Numbered from the stretch's first letter, positions 2,312-28,126 are shown. The stretch is 64,000 nucleotides of DNA from a phage (GCA_033580375.1 GCA_033580375.1_4527.1); one strand, 5' to 3'. The notes: generated from the letters alone by a model not told the origin. Program-made: numbers and translations.

Positions 2312-3308
2312 TTCAAGTGTTGTCTATCGTGCGATAGTTACTTCAAAATTTAGAACTGAAAAAATGTTGAATTTCTACAATTCAATAGGTGATGGTGATA
2401 ATAAAAACACCATCTTTATAACGTTTGGACGGTCTGAACCATGGGCTGCTAACGAAAATGAGGTGGGCTTCGCCCCACCGTATCCAACAGACTCGGTTTT
2501 AGGTGTAACAGATATGTGGACTAACATGATGGGTTTAGTTAAAGTTATCCCATCTATGTTAGACTCGGTTATTCCTAGACGTGACTGGGGAGATATTCGT
2601 TATCCGGACCCTTATACATTCAAAATAAATGATATAGTCGTATGTAATACAGCCCCATATAATGCCACTGAAGTCGGAGCTGGATGGTTAGTATACCGTT
2701 GCGTAGATGTTCCTGATGTTGGGATGTGTTCTATTGAGTCTCTCGACAACAAAGAAGAATGTCTTAAATTAGGCGGTAAATGGACTCCATCTGTTAGGTC
2801 TTTAACCCCTCCTGAAGGCCGTGGAGATGCTGAAGGGATTATCGAAGTTGGTGATGGATATATATGGGAGTATCTTTATGAGATTCCACCCGATGTGTCT
2901 ATAAACCGATGTACTAATGAATATATAGTCGTTCCATGGCCGGAAGAAGTTAAAGAAGACCCTGCTCGTTGGGGATATGAAAACAATCTAACCTGGCAAC
3001 AAGATGATTTTGGCCTTGTGTATAGAGTTAAAGCAAACATAATTCGTTTTAAAGCCTATTTAGACTCAGTTTATTTCCCTAATGCAGCACTGCCTGGTAA
3101 TAAAGGATTTAGACAAATTTCTATTATCACAAACCCGTTGGAAGCTAAACTCCGTCCTAATGACCCTAATATAAAAGCTGAAAAGGATTATTATGACCCC
3201 AGAGATTTACAGCGTCATTCCGGTGAAATGATTTATATGGAAAACCGTCCACCTATTATTATGGCAATGGACCAAACCGAAGAGATCAATATTTTGTTTA
3301 TGTTCTAA
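2304..3308 (+). CDS. 8: Baseplate wedge protein gp8
   Basis: 334 aa, same length as T4 gp8; T4 synteny; start overlaps the end of gene 7. Confidence 0.8.
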   Translation: MNDSSVVYRAIVTSKFRTEKMLNFYNSIGDGDNKNTIFITFGRSEPWAANENEVGFAPPYPTDSVLGVTDMWTNMMGLVKVIPSMLDSVIPRRDWGDIRYPDPYTFKINDIVVCNTAPYNATEVGAGWLVYRCVDVPDVGMCSIESLDNKEECLKLGGKWTPSVRSLTPPEGRGDAEGIIEVGDGYIWEYLYEIPPDVSINRCTNEYIVVPWPEEVKEDPARWGYENNLTWQQDDFGLVYRVKANIIRFKAYLDSVYFPNAALPGNKGFRQISIITNPLEAKLRPNDPNIKAEKDYYDPRDLQRHSGEMIYMENRPPIIMAMDQTEEINILFMF

Positions 3309-3312
3309 TTTA

Positions 3313-3330
3313 GGGAGACTTCGGTCTCCC
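3313..3330 (+). terminator. Stem-loop GGGAGAC-TTCG-GTCTCCC followed by TTTCGTG, after gene 8
   Basis: Perfect 7 bp GC-rich stem with UUCG tetraloop, read directly; member of a repeated hairpin family. Confidence 0.6.
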
Positions 3331-3337
3331 TTTCGTG

Positions 3338-3345
3338 TATAAATA
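3338..3345 (+). promoter_or_regulatory. T4-type late promoter TATAAATA for gene 9
   Basis: Exact TATAAATA about 26 nt upstream of the gene 9 ATG. Confidence 0.7.
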
Positions 3346-3370
3346 GTATAAACTATTAAGGATTAGCCAC

Positions 3371-4234
3371 ATGTATATTCAAACTCCAAAACAATTGATT
3401 GACGTTGGCGAAATTGGTAACGCTTCTACAGGCGATATCCTTTTTGACGGCGGTGTTAAAATAAACAATGATATAAATGCTATTTACAATGCGTTTGGTG
3501 ACCAACGAAAAATGGCAACTGCTAATGGGACAGGACCAAATGGACAAATAATCCATGCCACTGGATACTACCAAAAAGGAGGTCCTACTGATTATTTCAC
3601 CCCTGTTCCAGTAGGAAGTAGACACGACATAGATGCTTCTACTGGTGGTGTTATTGTTACTGTTGCTAGAGGTGAACTCGGTGATTCCGTGGAATTTATA
3701 AATTCAAACGGTTCAATTTCGGTAAACAACCCATTAAGTATCCAAGCATTAGATTCTATTAAAGGTGTTGCAGGTAATTTAGTTATAACTACACCTTATA
3801 CTAAAGTTACTCTTCGTTGTATTTCTTCTGGTGCGGGCGGCTCAATATGGGATTATTCTACAGAAAGTATGTTTAGTCATACCGAAATTCCTGTAGACGG
3901 GACATGGAATATTATTTCAGACTATGTCAATATTCCTCTATTTTATAAAACTGAATATAATGCTGCTAAACTTTTGGTTACATGCCAATCTGCCAACGGC
4001 AGAAAAATTAAATCATGCGAAATAAATATTCTAATAGATACAATTAATTCAAGAGTTATTTCAACTGAATACGCAGTGATGCGCGTTGGTAATGATAACG
4101 AAGAAGACGAAATTGCGAATATTAGTTTTTCGATAATTAACAATTTTGCCACTATGACAGTTTCTTCACATATAAATGGTCTTCGAGTGGCAGCTAAAGT
4201 TATTTCAACTCAGAAAATTAGGGTCGCTCAATAA
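3371..4234 (+). CDS. 9: Baseplate wedge protein gp9 (long tail fibre socket)
   Basis: 287 aa versus T4 gp9 288 aa; synteny. Confidence 0.8.
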   Translation: MYIQTPKQLIDVGEIGNASTGDILFDGGVKINNDINAIYNAFGDQRKMATANGTGPNGQIIHATGYYQKGGPTDYFTPVPVGSRHDIDASTGGVIVTVARGELGDSVEFINSNGSISVNNPLSIQALDSIKGVAGNLVITTPYTKVTLRCISSGAGGSIWDYSTESMFSHTEIPVDGTWNIISDYVNIPLFYKTEYNAAKLLVTCQSANGRKIKSCEINILIDTINSRVISTEYAVMRVGNDNEEDEIANISFSIINNFATMTVSSHINGLRVAAKVISTQKIRVAQ

Positions 4235-6048
4235 TGAAACAAAATATTAAAATTGGGAACGTCGTTGATGACGGACAAGGCGATTACCTTCGTCGTGGTG
4301 GTGCAAAAATTAATGAAAACTTTGATGAGTTGTATTATGAATTAGGCGATGGCGAAGTTCCATATTCCGCTGGTGCCTGGAAAACATACCATTCTTCAGA
4401 TGGACTTAATTTAGCTGCTGAATGGGGTAAATCATACGCAATTGATACTTCAACAGGGCGTGTTTCTATAAATTTACCTAAAGGAACAGTGGAAGATTAT
4501 AATAAAGTAATTAGAGCCCGTGATGTATTCGCCACATGGAATATTAACCCTGTAACATTAATTGCTGCCAGCGGTGATACTATTAAAGGTTCTTCCAGCC
4601 CAGTAGAAATCAATGTGCAGTTTTCAGACTTAGAATTAGTTTACTGTTCTCCTGGGCGCTGGGAATACGTTAAAAATAAACAAATAGACAAAATTACTAG
4701 TTCTGATATTAGTAGTGTAGCTCGTAAAGAATTTTTAGTCGAAGTTCAAGGTCAAACTGATTTTCTTGATGTATTTGGGTCTGTTTCTTATAATGTGAAT
4801 AATATCCGTGTAAAACATCGTGGTAACGAATTATACTACGGTGATGCGTTCAGTGACAATAGCGACTTTGGTTCTCCAGGAGCTAATCCTGGAGAAATCG
4901 TTGCATTAGACGGTAAAAACATCCGTTTAAGACAACCATGTAATATTGGCGACACTGTACAAATTGAAACCTTTTTAGATGGGATTACACAATTACGTAG
5001 TTCTTATTCTCGTCGCCAAATACGTATTTTAGATTCGAAATTAACAACCCGTCCTTCCTTAGAAGGAAGTGTATATGTTGCTGATTTGTCAACTTTGAAA
5101 TCTATTCCTTTTTCCGCATTTGGAGTTAATCCTTCAGAACCGGTCAATACCAATTCTTTAGAAGTTCGTTTTAACGGTATTCTTCAAGAATTAGCTGGTA
5201 CTGTTGGTTTACCTATGTTCAGATGTGAAGGAGCTGACGCAGAAACTTCTACCGAGTGTTCAGCTTTAGGTGGGACTTGGGTTACATCTAACACAGATTA
5301 TTCTATTGAATATGATGATAACGATGCAACTATCGCACGTGCTTTAGTCTTTGACCGTAAGTTTGAAGACCAAGACATTATTGATATTACATGGTTTAAT
5401 AACGATTTAGGCACTTTATTAAGTATCGATGACATTTTAGATACAACTGATGAAAGGTATGTCGCACAAGGTGCAACCGTAAATGTGACAGGCGATGTGG
5501 CTTTGACCGATTTCAATAATATCGGATGGCCTAATGTAGAATCTGTTCCGGCATATAGCAGGGAATTCTCATCTATTGCAAATATTTTTAACACTATTTA
5601 CCCTGTCGGTACTATTTACGAAAATGCAGTGAACCCTAATAACCCAGCCACGTATTTAGGATTTGGCTCTTGGAAATTATGGGGACAAGGAAAAGTATTA
5701 GTTGGATGGAATGACGATATTAGCGATCCTAATTTTGCATTAAATAATAACGACCTTGATTCTAGCGGGAATCCTACACATACCGCCGGTGGAACAGTCG
5801 GAACAACGTCTAACACACTAACTAATTCTGATTTACCTCCTACTCAAACTGACGAGAAAGTTCTTATTTCCGATGAGAACGGTACAATTATTATTGGTGG
5901 TTGTCAATACGACCCTGATGCAGAAGGTCCTATATACACCAAATACCGTGAAGGCCACGCCACAACGAATAGTACACACATACCGCCTCAAGCCGTAAAT
6001 AATATTCAACCGTCAGTTACCGTATACCGTTGGGTAAGGATTGCATAA
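4234..6048 (+). CDS. 10: Baseplate wedge protein gp10
   Basis: 604 aa versus T4 gp10 602 aa; synteny; ATGA-type overlap with gene 9 stop. Confidence 0.8.
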
Positions 6049-6707
6049 TGACCATACTTAATACTAAAGCGGGAGTAATATCCCGCGAAGCAGATTTTTT
6101 AGGATTTAGAAAAAATCCTACTCAAATTGATATTTTAAACAACCAAGGCGTAGGTTCTGTAACTATTTCTCAATTGGCAAAAGGATTCTATGATGATAAC
6201 GTAGAATCTGCAATAAACGATGTTCATAATATTGCTAGAGCAGATGTAGGAACAGTTACAATTAACACCTCAGGTGTATCTCCTGAAGGAACTTCACAGG
6301 TAGATTATTGGTCCTTTAGTGGAAGTGTAACTGACCCTAGTTTGCCAGATGGAAGCCCTGTTATTGTAAAAGTTTATGGACTTCCTGTTAATGCTACTGT
6401 AGGTATGACCGCCGACGAATTTGTTGTACAATTACGTACTACTCTCCGGAATGCGATTTCCGACCAATTGGCTATTGCAGAGTATAAAGATGACCCTACT
6501 GTTGGGACTAAATTACAAATAACATATTTAGATAACCAAAGACACGTACTCCCAACGTATTCCTCTTATGGTATCACGGTTTCTCAAGAAATAGTGTCTC
6601 AGGCTAAGTCCGGGTACGGCACTTGGAATTTACTAGGTGCGCAAACCATTACTCTTGACAACCATATTTCACCTACAACCTTTTATTATTTTGTGAGAAC
6701 CGCATGA
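6048..6707 (+). CDS. 11: Baseplate wedge protein gp11 (short tail fibre attachment)
   Basis: Track ORF 6030..6707; start moved to the ATG at 6048 (TAATG overlap with gene 10 stop), giving 219 aa as in T4 gp11. Confidence 0.75.
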
Positions 6708-20236: not shown

Positions 20237-21049
20237 ATGATCAAAGAACAACTTTTGAAAGAAGCTCAGAATATCGAGACTTCAGTTGCTCTTAATAGTG
20301 TTTTCGAATCAGTAGAACTGTCTCCGGACGTTAAAGCTAATTTCAGCACTGTATTCGAAGCCACCGTTAAGCAGGAAGCAGTCAAACTAGCTGAATCTCA
20401 TATCAAAGCTATCGCCGAAAAAGCCGAAGAAGAAGTTGAAAAGGCTAAAGAAGATGCTGAAGAGAAAGCTGATAAAAAATTGGCTGAACAAGCTTCTAAA
20501 TTCCTGGACCATCTTGCAAAAGAATGGCTCGCAGAAAACCAAATCGCAGTTGATAAAGGCATTAAAGCTGATTTGTTCGAATCCATGCTTGGTGGTCTGA
20601 AAGAACTGTTTGTTGAACATAACGTTGTTGTTCCAGAAGAATCTGTAGATGTTGTAGCAGAAATGGAAGAAGAGCTGGCCGAACATAAAGAAGAAACCGC
20701 TCGTTTGTTCGAAGAAGTTACCAAACGTGATGCATATATCAATTACGTTCAGCGTGAAACCGCTATTAATGAAAGCGTAAAAGACCTGACTGAATCTCAG
20801 AAAGAAAAAGTTATTGGCCTGGTTGAAGGTATGGATTATTCTGACGCATTTGGTACTAAGTTAACTGCTATTGTAGAAATGGTTAAAGGTTCTACTAAAG
20901 AAGAAGCCGCTATTACCGAAAGTATAAATACAGTTGACAATGACGCTGCCGGTCTTAATTTTGTCGCCGAAGCAGTTGACACTACCACAACTCAGGTAGA
21001 ACAGAATTCTAATGTAAGTTTATATGCGAAAGTCGCATCTCGTTTCTAA
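20237..21049 (+). CDS. 22: Prohead scaffold core protein gp22
   Basis: 270 aa, coiled-coil-rich and E/K-rich; T4 gp22 is 269 aa. Confidence 0.85.
   Translation: MIKEQLLKEAQNIETSVALNSVFESVELSPDVKANFSTVFEATVKQEAVKLAESHIKAIAEKAEEEVEKAKEDAEEKADKKLAEQASKFLDHLAKEWLAENQIAVDKGIKADLFESMLGGLKELFVEHNVVVPEESVDVVAEMEEELAEHKEETARLFEEVTKRDAYINYVQRETAINESVKDLTESQKEKVIGLVEGMDYSDAFGTKLTAIVEMVKGSTKEEAAITESINTVDNDAAGLNFVAEAVDTTTTQVEQNSNVSLYAKVASRF
20923..20930 (+). promoter_or_regulatory. Late promoter TATAAATA for gene 23, inside the 3' end of gene 22
   Basis: Exact TATAAATA ~137 nt upstream of gene 23. Confidence 0.6.
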
Positions 21050-21066
21050 TTTAAAGGTTAACACAA

Positions 21067-22635
21067 ATGACTACTATCAAAACTAAAGCTCAGCTCGTAG
21101 ACAAATGGAAAGAACTGCTGGAAGGTGAAGGCCTGCCGGAAATCGCTAATAGCAAGCAGGCTATTATCGCTAAAATCTTTGAAAACCAGGAAAAAGATTT
21201 CGAAGTATCCCCTGAATATAAAGACGAGAAAATCGCTCAGGCATTTGGTTCTTTCTTGACCGAAGCTGAAATTGGTGGTGACCACGGTTATAATGCTCAG
21301 AACATCGCAGCAGGTCAAACCTCTGGTGCAGTAACCCAAATTGGGCCGGCAGTTATGGGTATGGTTCGTCGTGCTATTCCTAATCTGATCGCTTTTGATA
21401 TTTGTGGTGTTCAGCCTATGAACAGCCCGACCGGTCAGGTATTTGCTCTCCGTGCAGTATATGGTAAAGACCCTATCGCTGCTGGCGCTAAAGAAGCTTT
21501 CCATCCGATGTATGCCCCAGACGCGATGTTCTCTGGTCAGGGTGCTGCTAAGAAATTCCCAGCTCTGGCTGCTGACACTACTACCGTTGTAGGTGATATC
21601 TATACTCACTTCTTCCAAGAAACTGGTACTGTATATCTGCAAGCTTCTGCTATCGTAACACTTGATTCTAGTGCAACTGATGCAGCTAAATTAGATGCAG
21701 AAGTTAAGAAACAAATGGAAGCAGGTGCACTGGTAGAAATCGCTGAAGGTATGGCTACTTCTATCGCTGAACTCCAGGAAGGTTTCAACGGTTCTACCGA
21801 TAACCCGTGGAATGAAATGGGCTTCCGTATCGATAAACAAGTTATCGAAGCTAAATCTCGCCAGCTGAAAGCTGCTTACTCTATCGAATTAGCACAAGAC
21901 CTCCGTGCAGTACACGGTATGGATGCTGATGCTGAACTGAGCGGTATTCTGGCTACAGAAATTATGCTAGAAATCAACCGTGAAGTTGTTGATTGGATTA
22001 ACTACTCAGCACAGGTTGGTAAATCTGGTATGACCCTGACTCCGGGTTCTAAAGCTGGTGTATTTGACTTCCAGGACCCGATTGATATCCGTGGTGCTCG
22101 TTGGGCCGGTGAAAGCTTTAAATCTCTGTTGTTCCAGATTGATAAAGAAGCAGTTGAAATTGCTCGTCAAACCGGTCGTGGTGAAGGTAACTTCATTATC
22201 GCTTCCCGTAACGTAGTTAACGTACTGGCTTCAGTTGATACTGGTATTTCTTACGCTGCACAGGGCCTGGCTTCTGGTTTTAATACCGACACTACTAAGT
22301 CCGTATTTGCCGGTGTACTTGGTGGTAAATACCGCGTATACATCGACCAGTATGCTAAACAGGATTACTTCACCGTTGGTTATAAAGGCGCTAACGAAAT
22401 GGATGCAGGTATTTACTACGCTCCTTACGTTGCACTTACCCCACTGCGTGGTTCCGATCCTAAGAACTTCCAGCCGGTAATGGGCTTTAAAACTCGTTAC
22501 GGTATCGGTGTTAACCCGTTTGCTGAAAGTTCCCTGCAGGCTCCAGGTGCTCGCATCCAGTCCGGTATGCCATCTATCCTGAACAGCCTTGGTAAGAACG
22601 CTTACTTTAGACGCGTCTACGTTAAAGGAATTTAA
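21067..22635 (+). CDS. 23: Major capsid protein gp23
   Basis: 522 aa; sequence MTIKTKA...RRVYVKGI almost identical to T4 gp23. Confidence 0.97.
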   Translation: MTTIKTKAQLVDKWKELLEGEGLPEIANSKQAIIAKIFENQEKDFEVSPEYKDEKIAQAFGSFLTEAEIGGDHGYNAQNIAAGQTSGAVTQIGPAVMGMVRRAIPNLIAFDICGVQPMNSPTGQVFALRAVYGKDPIAAGAKEAFHPMYAPDAMFSGQGAAKKFPALAADTTTVVGDIYTHFFQETGTVYLQASAIVTLDSSATDAAKLDAEVKKQMEAGALVEIAEGMATSIAELQEGFNGSTDNPWNEMGFRIDKQVIEAKSRQLKAAYSIELAQDLRAVHGMDADAELSGILATEIMLEINREVVDWINYSAQVGKSGMTLTPGSKAGVFDFQDPIDIRGARWAGESFKSLLFQIDKEAVEIARQTGRGEGNFIIASRNVVNVLASVDTGISYAAQGLASGFNTDTTKSVFAGVLGGKYRVYIDQYAKQDYFTVGYKGANEMDAGIYYAPYVALTPLRGSDPKNFQPVMGFKTRYGIGVNPFAESSLQAPGARIQSGMPSILNSLGKNAYFRRVYVKGI

Positions 22636-22664
22636 TGCTTTAACGTTAAAATACATAACCTTAT

Positions 22665-22682
22665 GGGAGACTCCGGTCTCCC
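22665..22682. terminator. Bidirectional stem-loop GGGAGAC-TCCG-GTCTCCC between convergent gene 23 and the GIY-YIG gene
   Basis: Perfect 7 bp stem; same hairpin family as 3313, 46145 and 62229. Confidence 0.6.
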
Positions 22683-22692
22683 ATTCTTGTTT

Positions 22693-23352
22693 CTATAGCT
22701 TAAAACAATCATCGCGTTCATTAATCCAATTTCTTATAGTTTTTGCGGATACGTTAAAGAATTCGGCAGCGTAATCGTAGTGGTTAAATTCATGACCTTT
22801 AATAGAAATATCCACAAATACAAATTTCTTACCTTTATTAGAATTCTTTCTAATTTTTGCTTTATGCTCTTCTGATAGTTTTCTACCTTTAAGATGAGAA
22901 TCTCTATTTTTATAAAACTTTTTATTTGCTATAGATTTGTTTTCTCGATGTTCTTTAGATTCTTTAGAACCTAATTTCTTTTTAGATATTTTGGCCCGAA
23001 CTTCTTCAGTCATACCAGCTTTTGTCTTTTCGGATAACATCTCACGATACCCAGGTTCCTGTAAAGCTACTATAACAGGATTACCCTTGCCGCCTAAGGC
23101 TGCATTATAAGTATCTGTTCTCATGACAAAAGCCTCGTCAACTAGTTCGGCTTCCTTAGCATACATCTCTTCAGATGTTTCGAAATTGAAAAGGATTTCC
23201 TTTTTAAAATTCTCTAAGCCGTATTTCTTTATGGATTTTACTATGTTAACCCCGGAACCCATATAAGAATCGTTAACATCTGTAGTGGCATGGGCTCCAA
23301 CATAAATCTTGTTATTAATGAGATTGGTTATTTTGTAAATTAAATAATTCAT
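22693..23352 (-). mobile_element. Free-standing GIY-YIG homing endonuclease (Seg-like, at the T4 segD position between 23 and 24)
   Basis: 219 aa; N-terminal GIY-YIG module (YLIYKITNLINNKIYVGAHATT...YMGSG); basic C-terminal domain. Confidence 0.8.
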
Positions 23353-23355
23353 ATT

Positions 23356-23622
23356 TTACGCTGCTTTGACACGACGGTTGATGATATCACGGAAGTCAAT
23401 ACGATTTTCTTGGATTTTCAGCCAGTTACCAGATTTGTCTTTGGTATGGGTAGAATATTCACCGTTCCACCAGAAGTCAGTTTCATAAGCCAGGGCTTCG
23501 TATTTCTTAACCAATGCATTAACTGCATTACCGTTAGGATTGGTACCAAATTTTTCTACCAGAGCTTTGATGTCTTTGTCAAGGTTAGAAAGTGTGGTAC
23601 GGATAAAGTTTAATTTGTTCAT
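23356..23622 (-). CDS. Hypothetical protein (88 aa)
   Basis: Track ORF trimmed to the ATG at 23622, preceded by AGGAG and an early-promoter cassette; the N-terminal extension would overlap the promoter. Confidence 0.5.
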   Translation of the reverse strand: MNKLNFIRTTLSNLDKDIKALVEKFGTNPNGNAVNALVKKYEALAYETDFWWNGEYSTHTKDKSGNWLKIQENRIDFRDIINRRVKAA

Positions 23623-23651
23623 TTTTAATCTCCTCATGTTTTGATAGGTCT

Positions 23652-23681
23652 ATAGTATCACGACGCTTTTTGTGTGTAAAC
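23652..23681 (-). promoter_or_regulatory. Early-type promoter (GTTTAC -35, TACTAT -10) for ORF 23356..23622
   Basis: On the - strand GTTTAC-N18-TACTAT, followed by the conserved ATCAAAACATGAGGAG leader. Confidence 0.55.
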
Positions 23682-23687
23682 CACTTT

Positions 23688-23695
23688 TATAAATA
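23688..23695 (+). promoter_or_regulatory. Late promoter TATAAATA for gene 24
   Basis: Exact TATAAATA ~30 nt upstream of the gene 24 ATG. Confidence 0.7.
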
Positions 23696-23724
23696 AAATT
23701 ATATTCTCAATAAGGAAAAATGCA

Positions 23725-25008
23725 ATGAGTAAAATCCAAAAATTATTGCGTGAATCTACAACGTCTACTAGCAACTCAATCGGTCGCCCAAATCTCGTTG
23801 CTTTGACTCGCGCTACGACTAAATTAATATATTCTGACATTGTGGCAACACAAAGAACTAATCAACCTGTTGCTGCTTTTTATGGTATTAAATATCTTAA
23901 CCCAGACAACGAATTAACATTTAAAACTGGTGCTACTTATGCAGGTGAAGCTGGATATGTAGACCGAGAAAAAATTACTGAGCTCACAGAAGAATCAAAA
24001 GCCACACTAAATAAAGGTGATTTTTTCAAATATAATAATATCGTCTATAAAGTGTTAGAAGATACACCGTTTGCAGATATTCAGGAAAGTGATCTAGAAT
24101 TAGCTCTTCAGATTGCGGTCGTTCATTTAAAGGTACGGTTATTTTCGGATGCAGCGGTAACAAGCAAATTTGAAAGCTCTGGTAGCGAAATTTCTGATGC
24201 AAGATTCCAGATTAATAAATGGCAAACTTCAGTCAAATCTCGTAAACTTAAAACCGGTCTCACGGTTGAATTAGCACAAGATTTGGAAGCGAATGGATTT
24301 GATGCCCCTAACTTCTTAGAAGATTTGCTTGCTACTGAAATGGCTGATGAAATTAATAAAGATATTCTTCAGTCTTTAATTACTGTATCGAAACGTTATA
24401 AAGTTACTGGAATTACTGACACTGGATTTATTGACTTGAGCTATGCATCCGCTCCGGAAGCAGGTCGTTCGTTATATCGAATGGTGTGTGAAATGGTATC
24501 GCACATTCAAAAAGAGTCAACTTATACTGCAACGTTTTGCGTAGCTTCAGCTCGTGCAGCTGCTATTCTTGCTGCTTCCGGTTGGTTAAAACATAAACCA
24601 GAAGATGATAAGTATCTTTCACAAAATGCTTACGGGTTCTTAGCTAATGGTTTACCGCTTTATTGCGATACTAACAGCCCATTAGATTATGTGATCGTTG
24701 GCGTAGTAGAAAATATTGGTGAAAAAGAAATTGTTGGATCAATTTTCTATGCTCCGTATACAGAAGGTCTCGACTTAGACGACCCTGAACATGTTGGTGC
24801 ATTTAAAGTTGTAGTTGATCCAGAAAGCTTGCAGCCGTCTATTGGTTTATTGGTTAGATATGCTTTATCTGCGAATCCTTACACAGTAGCAAAAGATGAA
24901 AAAGAAGCGAGAGTAATTGATGGTGGGGACATGGATAAAATGGCAGGACGTTCAGACTTGTCTGTTTTACTCGGTGTTAAATTGCCTAAAATTATTATAG
25001 ATGAATAA
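23725..25008 (+). CDS. 24: Capsid vertex protein gp24
   Basis: 427 aa as in T4 gp24; gp23 paralogue at the expected position. Confidence 0.9.
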   Translation: MSKIQKLLRESTTSTSNSIGRPNLVALTRATTKLIYSDIVATQRTNQPVAAFYGIKYLNPDNELTFKTGATYAGEAGYVDREKITELTEESKATLNKGDFFKYNNIVYKVLEDTPFADIQESDLELALQIAVVHLKVRLFSDAAVTSKFESSGSEISDARFQINKWQTSVKSRKLKTGLTVELAQDLEANGFDAPNFLEDLLATEMADEINKDILQSLITVSKRYKVTGITDTGFIDLSYASAPEAGRSLYRMVCEMVSHIQKESTYTATFCVASARAAAILAASGWLKHKPEDDKYLSQNAYGFLANGLPLYCDTNSPLDYVIVGVVENIGEKEIVGSIFYAPYTEGLDLDDPEHVGAFKVVVDPESLQPSIGLLVRYALSANPYTVAKDEKEARVIDGGDMDKMAGRSDLSVLLGVKLPKIIIDE

Positions 25009-25016
25009 ACGAAAAA

Positions 25017-25032
25017 GGGACCGTAAGGTCCC
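25017..25032. terminator. Bidirectional terminator AAAAA-GGGACC-GTAA-GGTCCC-TTTTT between convergent 24 and rnlB
   Basis: 6 bp GC stem flanked by A5 and T5 tracts. Confidence 0.7.
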
Positions 25033-25039
25033 TTTTTCG

Positions 25040-26047
25040 TTATGATACTAATTCAATCCATGCAGGACGCAGAACATCTTGCACCATTCGGACTAATTCT
25101 TTCTTAACAAGATTCGGATTATCAGATGATGTTAATACAATACCTTCACGAGAAGTTTCTTCCAGAATATCTTGAACAGTCAATCCCATCACTTTGCCAA
25201 AATCTTTTGGTGTTACAGTCCCAATCTTAGAAATCACATTATTAACACGATTTAATGTAACATAACAAGCTAGAACATCAAGCAAGTTTTTGTCAATTTC
25301 GGTTAATGGAACCTGAGTTTTAACAGGTTTATCAGACTTTTTCTTTTCACTGAATTTAGAGTTCTTGCACTTAATAGCTACACGAGTACCGTTTGGCAGC
25401 CATTTAGGGAAACAAGGCTTCAGAACATAACCTTCTGCCGTATTATCACCAATAACATTAGCATCAAATACACAATTATTTGCTTCGACAAGGTCTTCCG
25501 ATGCCGTAGCATTATAAGCGGCTAAGACGGAATCAAGGTCGTTTGGAATCATGATAAGAGCATCAAATGTTCCACGTCCAAGCATTGGTGCCATTTTAAA
25601 ACCAAACGTATTACAGAAATCTTGCATTTCGTAATCACTCATGTAATAAGTATCACCGCTTTCCGTGTTTATGATGATATCGAATACATAGAAATCTTTT
25701 TCACCGTAGTCAACACCTTTCTGAATTCCACCACCAGCGAATTCACCAAAGACTTGATATGTCACCGGCACTGAAGTTGAAATACTGCCCATGACTTCCT
25801 GAACGGCTTTAATAGCTTTATCATACTTCTTGAGTACTATTTCATAACCATAAAAATCTTCTGCTGGAAGAATAGGGCCTGTGCGCTTGGCGCATGTGAC
25901 GTTGTCACGTTCAATAATTAAACTAAAGTTGGTCCCATGGATTTTCTCACGTGCTACCCAAACACCAGTAGTCAAACCATTAGTGTAGAGTTTTTCAATA
26001 AACTTAGAGTTGTAGTGGTTTTCAAGACTGCTGTATTTCTTAAACAT
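25040..26047 (-). CDS. rnlB: RNA ligase 2 (Rnl2)
   Basis: 335 aa; N-terminus [20 protein letters not shown] and KIHG adenylylation motif match T4 Rnl2. Confidence 0.95.
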
Positions 26048-26710: not shown

Positions 26711-28126
26711 TTATGGATATGTATAGATGATACCAGTTTCCAAAGCAGTTTTATGGATGATGTATCCATTACGTGATTCTTGAACATCAACTTCTGGATA
26801 GTCTTTCATCATCTTCTGAAGAGTGTAACGATGCAGGTAGTATTTACTATCTGGATCGTCAATTTTCCAATCTTTACCTTCTTCAGTCATTTTTTGGATT
26901 TCATCCATAACCCACCAACCACACCAGATGTAAGCTGAAGTACGGTGTGGAAGAGGATGAACATAAGGTAGTTCACCTTCTGGCTCAATTGGAGTCCGTT
27001 CAGCAATAACAACTTCAGCGGTTGAACTAATTGTCTTTGAAGTATAGTTATCTTTAGTTAATACTGCTTCAACTTTAATTGTATGAGTACCAGCTGAGGA
27101 GGTATCAATACTGTAAGTATTAGTAGAATTACTTTCTGCTACGTTGTCTTTCTTCCAAGAATACACAATATTAGTATCACCTGGAGCACCAGTAACAGAT
27201 GCTGTTAAAGTTGCAGTTCCACCAACAGTAGTATTAACTGATGTGGGAGATAAATAAATGGTGGCACTATTAAATGTAGCATTATTAGTTACTACTGTTG
27301 CTTCTGCTGAAATTTCTTTTGTAACATAATTTGATGCAGAAACAGATACGGTGCATTTAAGAGTTTTACTTCCGACCTCGGTTGGAGTGAATTTATACGT
27401 AGCAGAAGTTGCATCTGGAATATTACTGTCATCCATTGACCACTGGAATGATGTAGTAGCACCTGAAGGTGCACCAGAGACATTTGCAGTTAAAGTAATA
27501 GGAACACCAAAGACTGTAGTCGGAGACTCAGGCGTAATTTTTAGTGTTGAAGAATTAGCCTTTTTATTTACAGTCAAAGAAACCGCTGATGATTCTACTG
27601 TTTTATCAACGTAATCAGTTGCAGTCACTGTGACAGAGCAAGTTATAGACTTAGTTCCTTCAGATGTTGGTGTATATTCAAAGGTTGATTGCTTTTGTCC
27701 ATCAACAGCGACCCCGTCAACTTTCCATGTATAAGCAATAGCAGCACCACTAGGTTGATTGCTTACATTAGCAGTGAATGTTGTTGCTGTTCCAATTTCT
27801 ACTGCAGCCGGAGAAGCCGGAGTAACAGCGACGGTAGAATTATTTTCTTTCTTATTAACAGTGATAGTTGTTGACGCTTCAGCTATTTCCGGATCTCCTG
27901 CGGAAAGTGTATTAGTTGCAACCACTTTAATTTTTTTTGTTCCTGCCGGAGAAGCAAGAGTATAATCCATTGTAGCAGCCGTAGACTCCTGTGCTATATC
28001 ATCTACAGTCCAGACGTATGTAATAGTACCATCTGGAGTTTCACCTGCAGGTGTAGCAGTGAATGTTTGTGAACCTCCAATAACCCCTGTAGGAGTTAAA
28101 GGAGATAATGTGACAGTGAATGTCAT
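26711..28126 (-). CDS. hoc: Highly immunogenic outer capsid protein Hoc, enlarged with tandem Ig-like domains
   Basis: C-terminal ~100 aa (EPEGELPYVHPLPHR...GIIYTYP) match the T4 Hoc capsid-binding domain; 471 aa versus 376 aa in T4. Confidence 0.9.
   Translation of the reverse strand: MTFTVTLSPLTPTGVIGGSQTFTATPAGETPDGTITYVWTVDDIAQESTAATMDYTLASPAGTKKIKVVATNTLSAGDPEIAEASTTITVNKKENNSTVAVTPASPAAVEIGTATTFTANVSNQPSGAAIAYTWKVDGVAVDGQKQSTFEYTPTSEGTKSITCSVTVTATDYVDKTVESSAVSLTVNKKANSSTLKITPESPTTVFGVPITLTANVSGAPSGATTSFQWSMDDSNIPDATSATYKFTPTEVGSKTLKCTVSVSASNYVTKEISAEATVVTNNATFNSATIYLSPTSVNTTVGGTATLTASVTGAPGDTNIVYSWKKDNVAESNSTNTYSIDTSSAGTHTIKVEAVLTKDNYTSKTISSTAEVVIAERTPIEPEGELPYVHPLPHRTSAYIWCGWWVMDEIQKMTEEGKDWKIDDPDSKYYLHRYTLQKMMKDYPEVDVQESRNGYIIHKTALETGIIYTYP

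Follow-up and report, generated by a model that had tools for sequence, protein, structure and literature searches.

A SegD-clade homing endonuclease gene behind a resident early gene in the capsid gene 23/24 gap of a T4-like phage

Layout of the gene 23/24 locus

The gap between the major capsid protein gene 23 and the capsid vertex protein gene 24 of a T4-like phage (Tevenvirinae), part of a 64-kb stretch of DNA that we call the window, holds two small genes on the strand opposite to both capsid genes (Table 1). ORF88, an 88-aa gene, comes first on that strand and is followed by a 219-aa gene for a GIY-YIG homing endonuclease of the SegD clade. Both reading frames were recovered with the lengths and coordinates originally given for them, and so was the spacing between them: the junction reads TAA AAT ATG, exactly 3 nt from stop to start. 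The nearest public relatives, which are Shigella phage JK45 and Escherichia phages AV109-116, F2, ATK47/48 and the LF82 series, are 96.8–99.5% identical across 22500-23900, and their records are labelled Tequatrovirus or Mosigvirus. The endonuclease gene is already annotated as SegD homing endonuclease in public GenBank/RefSeq records of 99–100% identity.

Table 1 Features of the locus, in window positions unless stated otherwise
Feature	Position	Strand	Remarks
gp23 major capsid protein gene	21067-22635	+	522-aa ORF; labelled major head/capsid protein in JK45 (99.5% identical)
GC-rich hairpin, 9-bp stem	22663-22684		gene-23 intrinsic terminator; 3' boundary abutted by every SegD-clade gene
SegD-clade GIY-YIG homing endonuclease gene	22693-23352	-	219 aa
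Junction tract	23353-23367	-	3-nt spacer AAT, ORF88 stop TAA and last three ORF88 codons AAA GCA GCG
ORF88, resident early gene	23356-23622	-	88 aa; PHROG 6003
ORF88 Shine-Dalgarno GAGGAG	23630-23635	-	7 nt ahead of ATG; read from sequence
Sigma70-type (T4 early-type) promoter candidate	23652-23680	-	TTTACA, 17 nt, TACTAT, with TG ahead of it
T4 late promoter of gene 24, TATAAATA	23688-23695	+	exact match; back-to-back with the antisense early-type promoter
gp24 capsid vertex protein gene	23725-25008	+	427-aa ORF; JK45 annotation
segD promoter match, T4 GT7	1078-1106 (compared segment)	-	equivalent to window 23652-23680 (-)
segD promoter match, T6	2443-2471 (compared segment)	+	equivalent to window 23652-23680 (-)

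One border of the locus, the gene 24 late promoter, is present as predicted, 30 nt ahead of the gp24 ATG. The other had been described as a bidirectional terminator, a description that stands for one strand. On the gene-23 strand the hairpin, with its tail TCTTGTTTCT, matches a terminator; on the minus-strand RNA this 9-bp stem can form as well (local region, −17.9 kcal/mol), with no adjacent U-tract and the first U-run about 10 nt away. Since the hairpin is a terminator by these criteria only on the gene-23 strand, the bidirectional part of the description is half borne out. The hairpin itself is conserved 3–11 nt past the endonuclease stop codon in all eight loci compared.

Two further reading frames overlap these features. 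An alternative start that would lengthen ORF88 to 93 aa, at 23637, falls within the GAGGAG Shine-Dalgarno sequence, and a 60-aa minus-strand ORF (23658-23840), which extends over the start of gp24 and the promoter and is without support, is probably spurious.

A free-standing endonuclease of the SegD clade

The original prediction placed the 219-aa protein in the Seg family of GIY-YIG endonucleases, and comparison with Seg proteins agrees. The T6 segD product is 58.4% identical over 219/219 residues with the GIY-YIG residues aligned, T4-type SegD matches of about this grade (around 58%) occur in about 59 records, and other Seg-like matches span only the N-terminal 40–60% of the protein. The protein matches PHROG 314 ‘homing endonuclease’ (5e-54) and passes NCBIfam TIGR01453, a group I intron endonuclease subfamily, with 57.4 bits against a curated cutoff of 56.05, residues 5-214 aligning with profile positions 4-205 of 215. 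It does not reach the Pfam gathering thresholds of PF19835 (SegE_GIY-YIG; 20.0 against 25) or PF01541 (16.2 against 22.6); precomputed matches to one or the other are present for many close homologues. On these alignments we assign the gene product to the SegD clade of free-standing Seg-family GIY-YIG endonucleases. Intron encoding is ruled out, as comparison of 21000-25500 with Rfam gave no match to group I introns or to any other family; in this the gene differs from that of I-TevI, which is encoded in the T4 td intron.

At the N terminus, the GIY motif reads L4-I5-Y6 and the YIG motif Y17-V18-G19. Five residues (Y6, Y17, G19, E67 and N83) are invariant in an alignment of 42 homologous sequences. 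The first three align with Y6, Y17 and G19 of I-TevI and the pair Y82-N83 aligns with Y89-N90, and E67 falls within one column of I-TevI position 75 (E75), where the HMMER alignment has low confidence. When the 42-sequence profile was compared with the PDB, the I-TevI catalytic domain was the sole match, and a marginal one (E = 0.03); a PDB sequence search with the single protein returned only a chance ribosomal-protein match. In the predicted structure, a three-stranded sheet with helices is present, and the I-TevI catalytic domain is its best fold match.

A counterpart of I-TevI R27 was not found: hhalign leaves the I-TevI segment DFEKRWKRH opposite a gap of nine residues in the SegD-type profile, and the alignment of 42 homologues contains no invariant Arg. 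Invariant around residues 20-34 are instead H21, T23, D28, Y30 and G32-S33-G34. Profile alignment thus marks the missing Arg27 segment as a trait of the whole SegD-like family, T4 and T6 SegD included, and not as a defect of this copy. Because the SegD-type domain is without this segment, its chemistry would not be simply transferable from I-TevI.

The predicted domain order is that of T4 SegD, with a catalytic domain (about residues 1-90), a helical, NUMOD3-like linker and a C-terminal helix-turn-helix. Alleles differ very little in the catalytic domain (dS 0.11), while the C-terminal DNA-binding region has dS >1 against IME08 and 04086; within it, the helix-turn-helix region (window 22693-22830 (-)) differs from these two alleles in length too. 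The endonuclease is thus a domain mosaic. The IME08 C terminus (..QFDDCYKL) is similar to the one in Erwinia phage Vettismorki (..QFDDCYKI), and the pattern suggests that SegD-clade alleles have swapped DNA-binding modules.

Judged by codon substitution, both small genes are real and under purifying selection, with dN/dS of 0–0.11 for ORF88 and 0.08–0.25 for the endonuclease, whose ORF is intact in 38 of the 38 records that carry it.

ORF88 is found with and without the endonuclease

ORF88 matches PHROG 6003 (1.5e-48), a family of unknown function, and no other informative family; fold searches with a model of moderate quality gave only non-specific helical matches. We found the gene in 120 phage records, 38 with the endonuclease and about 82 without, and an IMG/VR scan with ORF88 returned seven loci, all of them known isolates. 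It stands alone between genes 23 and 24 in SQ17, JS10, JS98, QL01, VR5 and IME281. The VR7/VR25-type Gapriverviruses carry a 65%-identical form, and the corresponding site of Mosigvirus APCEc01 holds a homologue of about 30% identity, of equal length and with the promoter in the same position, most Mosigviruses having a homologue of such low identity there. A more distant setting is provided by the unrelated Acinetobacter phage ABPH49, in which a 41%-identical homologue lies among small early-type genes, away from capsid genes.

The original reading of the endonuclease and the 88-aa gene as one module therefore fails, as ORF88 resides in many phages that have no endonuclease. On this comparative evidence we regard ORF88 as a resident early gene and not as part of the mobile element. 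Its cassette (23356-23650 (-), from the hairpin to the promoter −10) is 97–100% identical between endonuclease-less alleles of different genera (SQ17 and JS10), whereas the neighbouring capsid-gene ends differ by 20–45% across those genera. ORF88 itself is thus a recombination patch, and because endonuclease-less alleles of different genera have almost the same ORF88, exchange of the cassette would not depend strictly on an endonuclease in cis.

Allelic states of the gap and distribution of the clade

To survey the gap we took a spread selection from about 1,500 records matching 22400-24000, classed the alleles by the distance between their gp23 and gp24 matches and verified the classes on retrieved examples. 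At least five states were found: an empty gap; T4-type segD alone; ORF88 alone; an RB69-type homologue of ORF88 alone; and ORF88 with the endonuclease, the last in 38 records. The empty gap, 83 nt long as in teqsoen, is the commonest state among T4-like coliphages. The presence/absence polymorphism that the original prediction had proposed as a check is thus strong among relatives, and the locus is far from invariant.

Genes of the SegD clade at 60–70% identity occupy the same gap, antisense and without ORF88, in Winklervirus, Moonvirus, Gelderlandvirus, Yersinia phage MHG19 and Gaprivervirus TH15. The clade is also found between genes 23 and 24, again antisense, in Tequatrovirus (T4 and T6), in Dhakavirus and in the window's own group, so that the comparison makes it locus-specific across at least eight T4-like genera. 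In the window, the endonuclease lies where segD lies in T4, as had been claimed: between the two capsid genes, antisense, with its stop codon beside the gene-23 hairpin. As the stop codon of SegD-clade genes is 3–11 nt from the hairpin, and the gap is the same in every case, the clade is specialised for this site.

Within Gaprivervirus, the gap holds an ORF88 homologue in VR25; in TH15 it is occupied by a SegD-clade gene that stands alone and has a promoter and AGGAG of its own. These alternatives imply that entry of the endonuclease can replace ORF88 rather than join it.

Downstream of the locus, Dhakaviruses have two tandem gp24 paralogues, 24a and 24b (JS10 1-2399, IME08 2674-4348 and UP19 3728-6291 in the compared segments); the window has one.

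The insertion junction

The hairpin and the following ...ATTCTTGTTTCTATA are common to alleles with and without the endonuclease. In endonuclease-less alleles ORF88 ends ...GTT AAG ATT GCA TAG, straight after ...ATTCTTGTTTCTATA. In endonuclease-bearing alleles it ends ...GTC AAA GCA GCG TAA, and this is followed by AAT ATG and the rest of the endonuclease ORF, the stop codon of which, TAG, falls inside a shared TATAG. Aligning alleles with and without the gene indicates that about 11 nt were exchanged at the insertion. The TAA AAT ATG fusion, with its 3-nt stop-to-start spacing, is present in 38/38 endonuclease-bearing records, with an ORF88 C terminus that varies among them (KAA, KAE or KVEA).

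The ATT GCA ending is common to the distant RB69-type homologue, which rules out the endonuclease-less alleles as simple deletions. For the same reason the endonuclease-less form looks ancestral.

By alignment, the junction tract travels with the endonuclease and holds the position of the endonuclease Shine-Dalgarno sequence. We also considered the cluster of substitutions at the 3' end of ORF88 as a pure signature of target-site immunity, and judged this reading less likely because sister alleles have their Shine-Dalgarno sequence exactly at this tract; the cluster is better explained as the putative leader of the endonuclease itself, although it may serve immunity too. The target site of T4 SegD is reportedly identical in phages with and without segD, and the enzyme reportedly cuts both alike.

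Expression signals

Of the two genes, ORF88 had been credited with an early promoter of its own, and the endonuclease with no ribosome-binding site; both statements agree with what we find. The promoter candidate ahead of ORF88 (TTTACA-17-TACTAT with TG, read from 23680 to 23652 on the minus strand) has its position conserved in eight other loci, in a region that is AT-rich and in which sigma70-type matches are no more numerous than in shuffled sequence. It is the single promoter match on the endonuclease coding strand and is placed upstream of ORF88, and the endonuclease lies 270 nt further downstream of the promoter position that serves ORF88. The window contains 17 copies of the late motif TATAAATA, where 6.7 would be expected; near the locus the gene 24 promoter is its sole match, with none on the minus strand. 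A late or middle promoter inside ORF88 is ruled out by the lack of TATAAATA and of a second sigma70-like match on that strand, and no MotA-box-like TGCTT was seen inside ORF88 on inspection by eye.

All members of the clade that stand alone in the gap have a promoter of the GTTTAC(A)-17-TATAAT type, which faces away from the adjoining late promoter of gp24, and a GGAG or AGGAG Shine-Dalgarno sequence 5–11 nt ahead of the ATG. In the window neither signal lies directly upstream of the endonuclease, and ORF88 sits in their place. In T4 and T6, the sigma70-type match (TTTACA-17-TATTAT with TG, 10/12) lies about 30 nt upstream of segD on the coding strand, back-to-back with the gp24 late promoter, an arrangement that is conserved at SegD-clade loci in a further five genera. 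A 2010 review, in its treatment of segD, states that no segD-specific promoter could be identified (PMC2988022).

At the endonuclease start of the window, the best anti-Shine-Dalgarno duplex reaches −2.2 kcal/mol, compared with −6.1 to −10.2 kcal/mol in stand-alone relatives. Two sister alleles keep a stronger sequence within the end of ORF88: 04086 reads AAA GCG GAG TAA, with GGAG and −6.1 kcal/mol, and UP19 reads GTA GAG GCC TAA, with GAGG and −5.8 kcal/mol. The remaining 36 of the 38 records (the window and 35 others) are without one and have AGCG or AGCA, at −2.2 to −1.0 kcal/mol. The junction RNA is unstructured and folds worse than shuffled sequence (z = +1.6), which rules out an inhibitory hairpin over the endonuclease start of the kind found in I-TevI and segB. 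As there is no ribosome-binding site, it is plausible, in line with the original prediction, that the endonuclease is translated by coupling to ORF88 or at a low level.

Evidence for mobility

When the window is compared with Dhakaviruses 005 and UP19, sliding identity is 93–100% across the block of ORF88 and endonuclease (22600-23650), against 55–90% in the gp23 and gp24 flanks. In UP19, a patch identical to the window starts some 45 nt within gp23 and reaches halfway into the endonuclease gene. Two near-isogenic pairs were also found. The flanks of SQ17 are 98–100% identical to those of the window, and SQ17 is missing exactly the endonuclease and the junction tract; among Dhakaviruses, IME08 has the endonuclease and JS98 does not. 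Endonuclease-bearing Dhakaviruses have window-like terminal gp23 codons and a spacer longer by 15 nt, both absent from endonuclease-less Dhakaviruses.

Marker co-segregation with the gene extends at least 60–100 nt on the gp23 side and less than 30 nt on the ORF88 side; the longer reach on the gp23 side weakly favours a cut on the gp23/hairpin side of the locus. At the level of sequence, the locus displays what is expected of a homing element, in that the gene is present or absent at one locus among collinear relatives and the same element is found in divergent backgrounds together with markers that appear co-converted.

A proposed history of the locus

We consider it probable that a SegD-clade homing endonuclease entered a gap held by ORF88 and is expressed from the signals of ORF88, presumably cutting relatives that are without the endonuclease. 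The SegD lineage is a specialist of the 23/24 capsid-gene gap in T4-like phages, and the insertion would have fallen between the ORF88 stop codon and the gene-23 terminator hairpin, replacing about 11 nt, so that the end of ORF88, three codons and the stop, would be encoded by the 5' leader of the endonuclease. Transcription would most likely start at the early-type promoter of ORF88 and yield a bicistronic antisense mRNA ending at or near the hairpin. The Shine-Dalgarno sequence still present in the two sister alleles would have been mutated away in the window allele; ribosomes reaching the UAA of ORF88 would stop there and start again after 3 nt, on RNA that is A/U-rich and unstructured, giving low-level translation of the endonuclease. 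In co-infecting relatives without the gene, the protein would presumably make a site-specific double-strand break near the locus, and repair from the endonuclease-bearing genome would copy the gene together with neighbouring markers, as the comparative patterns suggest for both steps.

A more specific version of this history can be put forward tentatively. The SegD-type gene may have fused its own leader in frame to the C terminus of ORF88, turning its Shine-Dalgarno sequence into the last codons of the resident (GGAG in 04086, GAGG in UP19, decayed to AGCG here), and may now be obligately coupled to the promoter and ribosomes of ORF88. An enzyme that cuts close to the end of gp23, to the hairpin or to the 3' part of ORF88 might then have turned the short cassette into a hot spot at which T4-like genera exchange DNA. 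If true, the hot spot would explain why ORF88 is 97–100% identical across genera with capsid genes that differ by 20–45%.

Other readings were weighed against the captured, resident-driven endonuclease. The SegD-type gene may no longer home at all, and may persist wedged between essential capsid genes through ordinary recombination or cut for marker exclusion against co-infecting phages. We regard this as possible but doubtful. It agrees with the reported behaviour of T4 SegD, which, according to the account given in PMC9523250, cleaves DNA yet initiates no homing; the loss of the Shine-Dalgarno sequence in all but two of the 38 records is consistent with attenuation, and the ORF88 cassette is swapped between genera even without the endonuclease. 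However, the uniformly intact ORF and its low dN/dS, the identical junction in two genera, the two near-isogenic pairs with and without the gene, and the co-segregation of gp23-side flanking markers with the gene all argue against a gene that has ceased to home. How the protein is made could also differ from what we propose: direct ribosome loading on the A/U-rich leader, dependent on S1 and independent of a Shine-Dalgarno sequence, would let the endonuclease be translated independently of ORF88. The junction is indeed A/U-rich and less structured than shuffled controls, and T4 mRNAs often have weak Shine-Dalgarno sequences, but the 3-nt spacing is kept in every endonuclease-bearing record despite the varying ORF88 C terminus, as coupling would conserve, and we judge independent translation to be unlikely.

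Very improbable, in our assessment, is a functional two-gene mobile module in which ORF88 acts as an accessory to the endonuclease, whether as regulator, immunity factor or nuclease partner. The 3-nt juxtaposition, the probable co-transcription and the joint movement of the pair between genera are what such a module would produce, but they are set against the many records with ORF88 and no endonuclease, the three divergent ORF88 subtypes at the locus, and the homologue in the Acinetobacter phage, at a long distance from any endonuclease. ORF88 is absent from six further SegD-clade loci, those of T4 and T6 among them, and in Gaprivervirus the two genes are alternatives.

Comparison with known systems and significance

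T4 SegD is the sole member of the clade known to have been studied. PMC9523250, citing Sokolov 2018 (Virology 515:215), reports that it cleaves DNA but does not home; the same study is among the references of PMC10448857. The window endonuclease shares with it the clade (58% identity over the full length), the locus, the antisense orientation and a stop codon abutting the gene-23 terminator hairpin. T4 and T6 segD, however, stand alone in the gap with GGAG and a promoter match upstream, whereas the window gene is a second cistron behind ORF88, with no Shine-Dalgarno sequence or promoter of its own and a C-terminal DNA-binding region that has strongly diverged from that of T4 SegD.

A second comparison is with mobE and other free-standing T4 endonuclease genes, which the section of PMC2988022 dealing with them describes as having no translation initiation region of their own, the mobE AUG overlapping the end of the upstream ORF. 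The likeness lies in an ORF directly behind or overlapping an upstream gene and without a recognisable ribosome-binding site, which in that account implies coupled or weak translation. Unlike the window gene, which is antisense to the capsid genes and behind an early-type promoter, the mobE-like genes are described in the same section as having the orientation of their essential neighbours and middle or late promoters (PMC2988022).

The finding as such is ordinary, and operon capture with an overprinted, decayed Shine-Dalgarno sequence is a neat but modest addition to it. The locus would nevertheless offer a concrete route by which a selfish gene becomes dependent on the expression signals of a resident gene. 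As T4 SegD reportedly does not home, the naturally occurring near-isogenic pairs that differ in this gene (window/JK45 against SQ17, and IME08 against JS98) would be useful for retesting homing of the SegD type. For phage engineering, the 23/24 gap is a naturally permissive insertion site with defined boundaries.

Minor differences from JK45

Two differences from JK45 lie beyond gene 24. Inside rnlB (25600-25800), identity falls to 80–85%. The window also has a Hoc-like head-decoration ORF (26711-28126 (-)) of 471 aa with Ig/PKD-type repeats; in JK45, which is otherwise 99% identical, the Hoc-like gene is annotated with 1,131 nt (376 aa), which suggests an extra repeat domain in the window's ORF.
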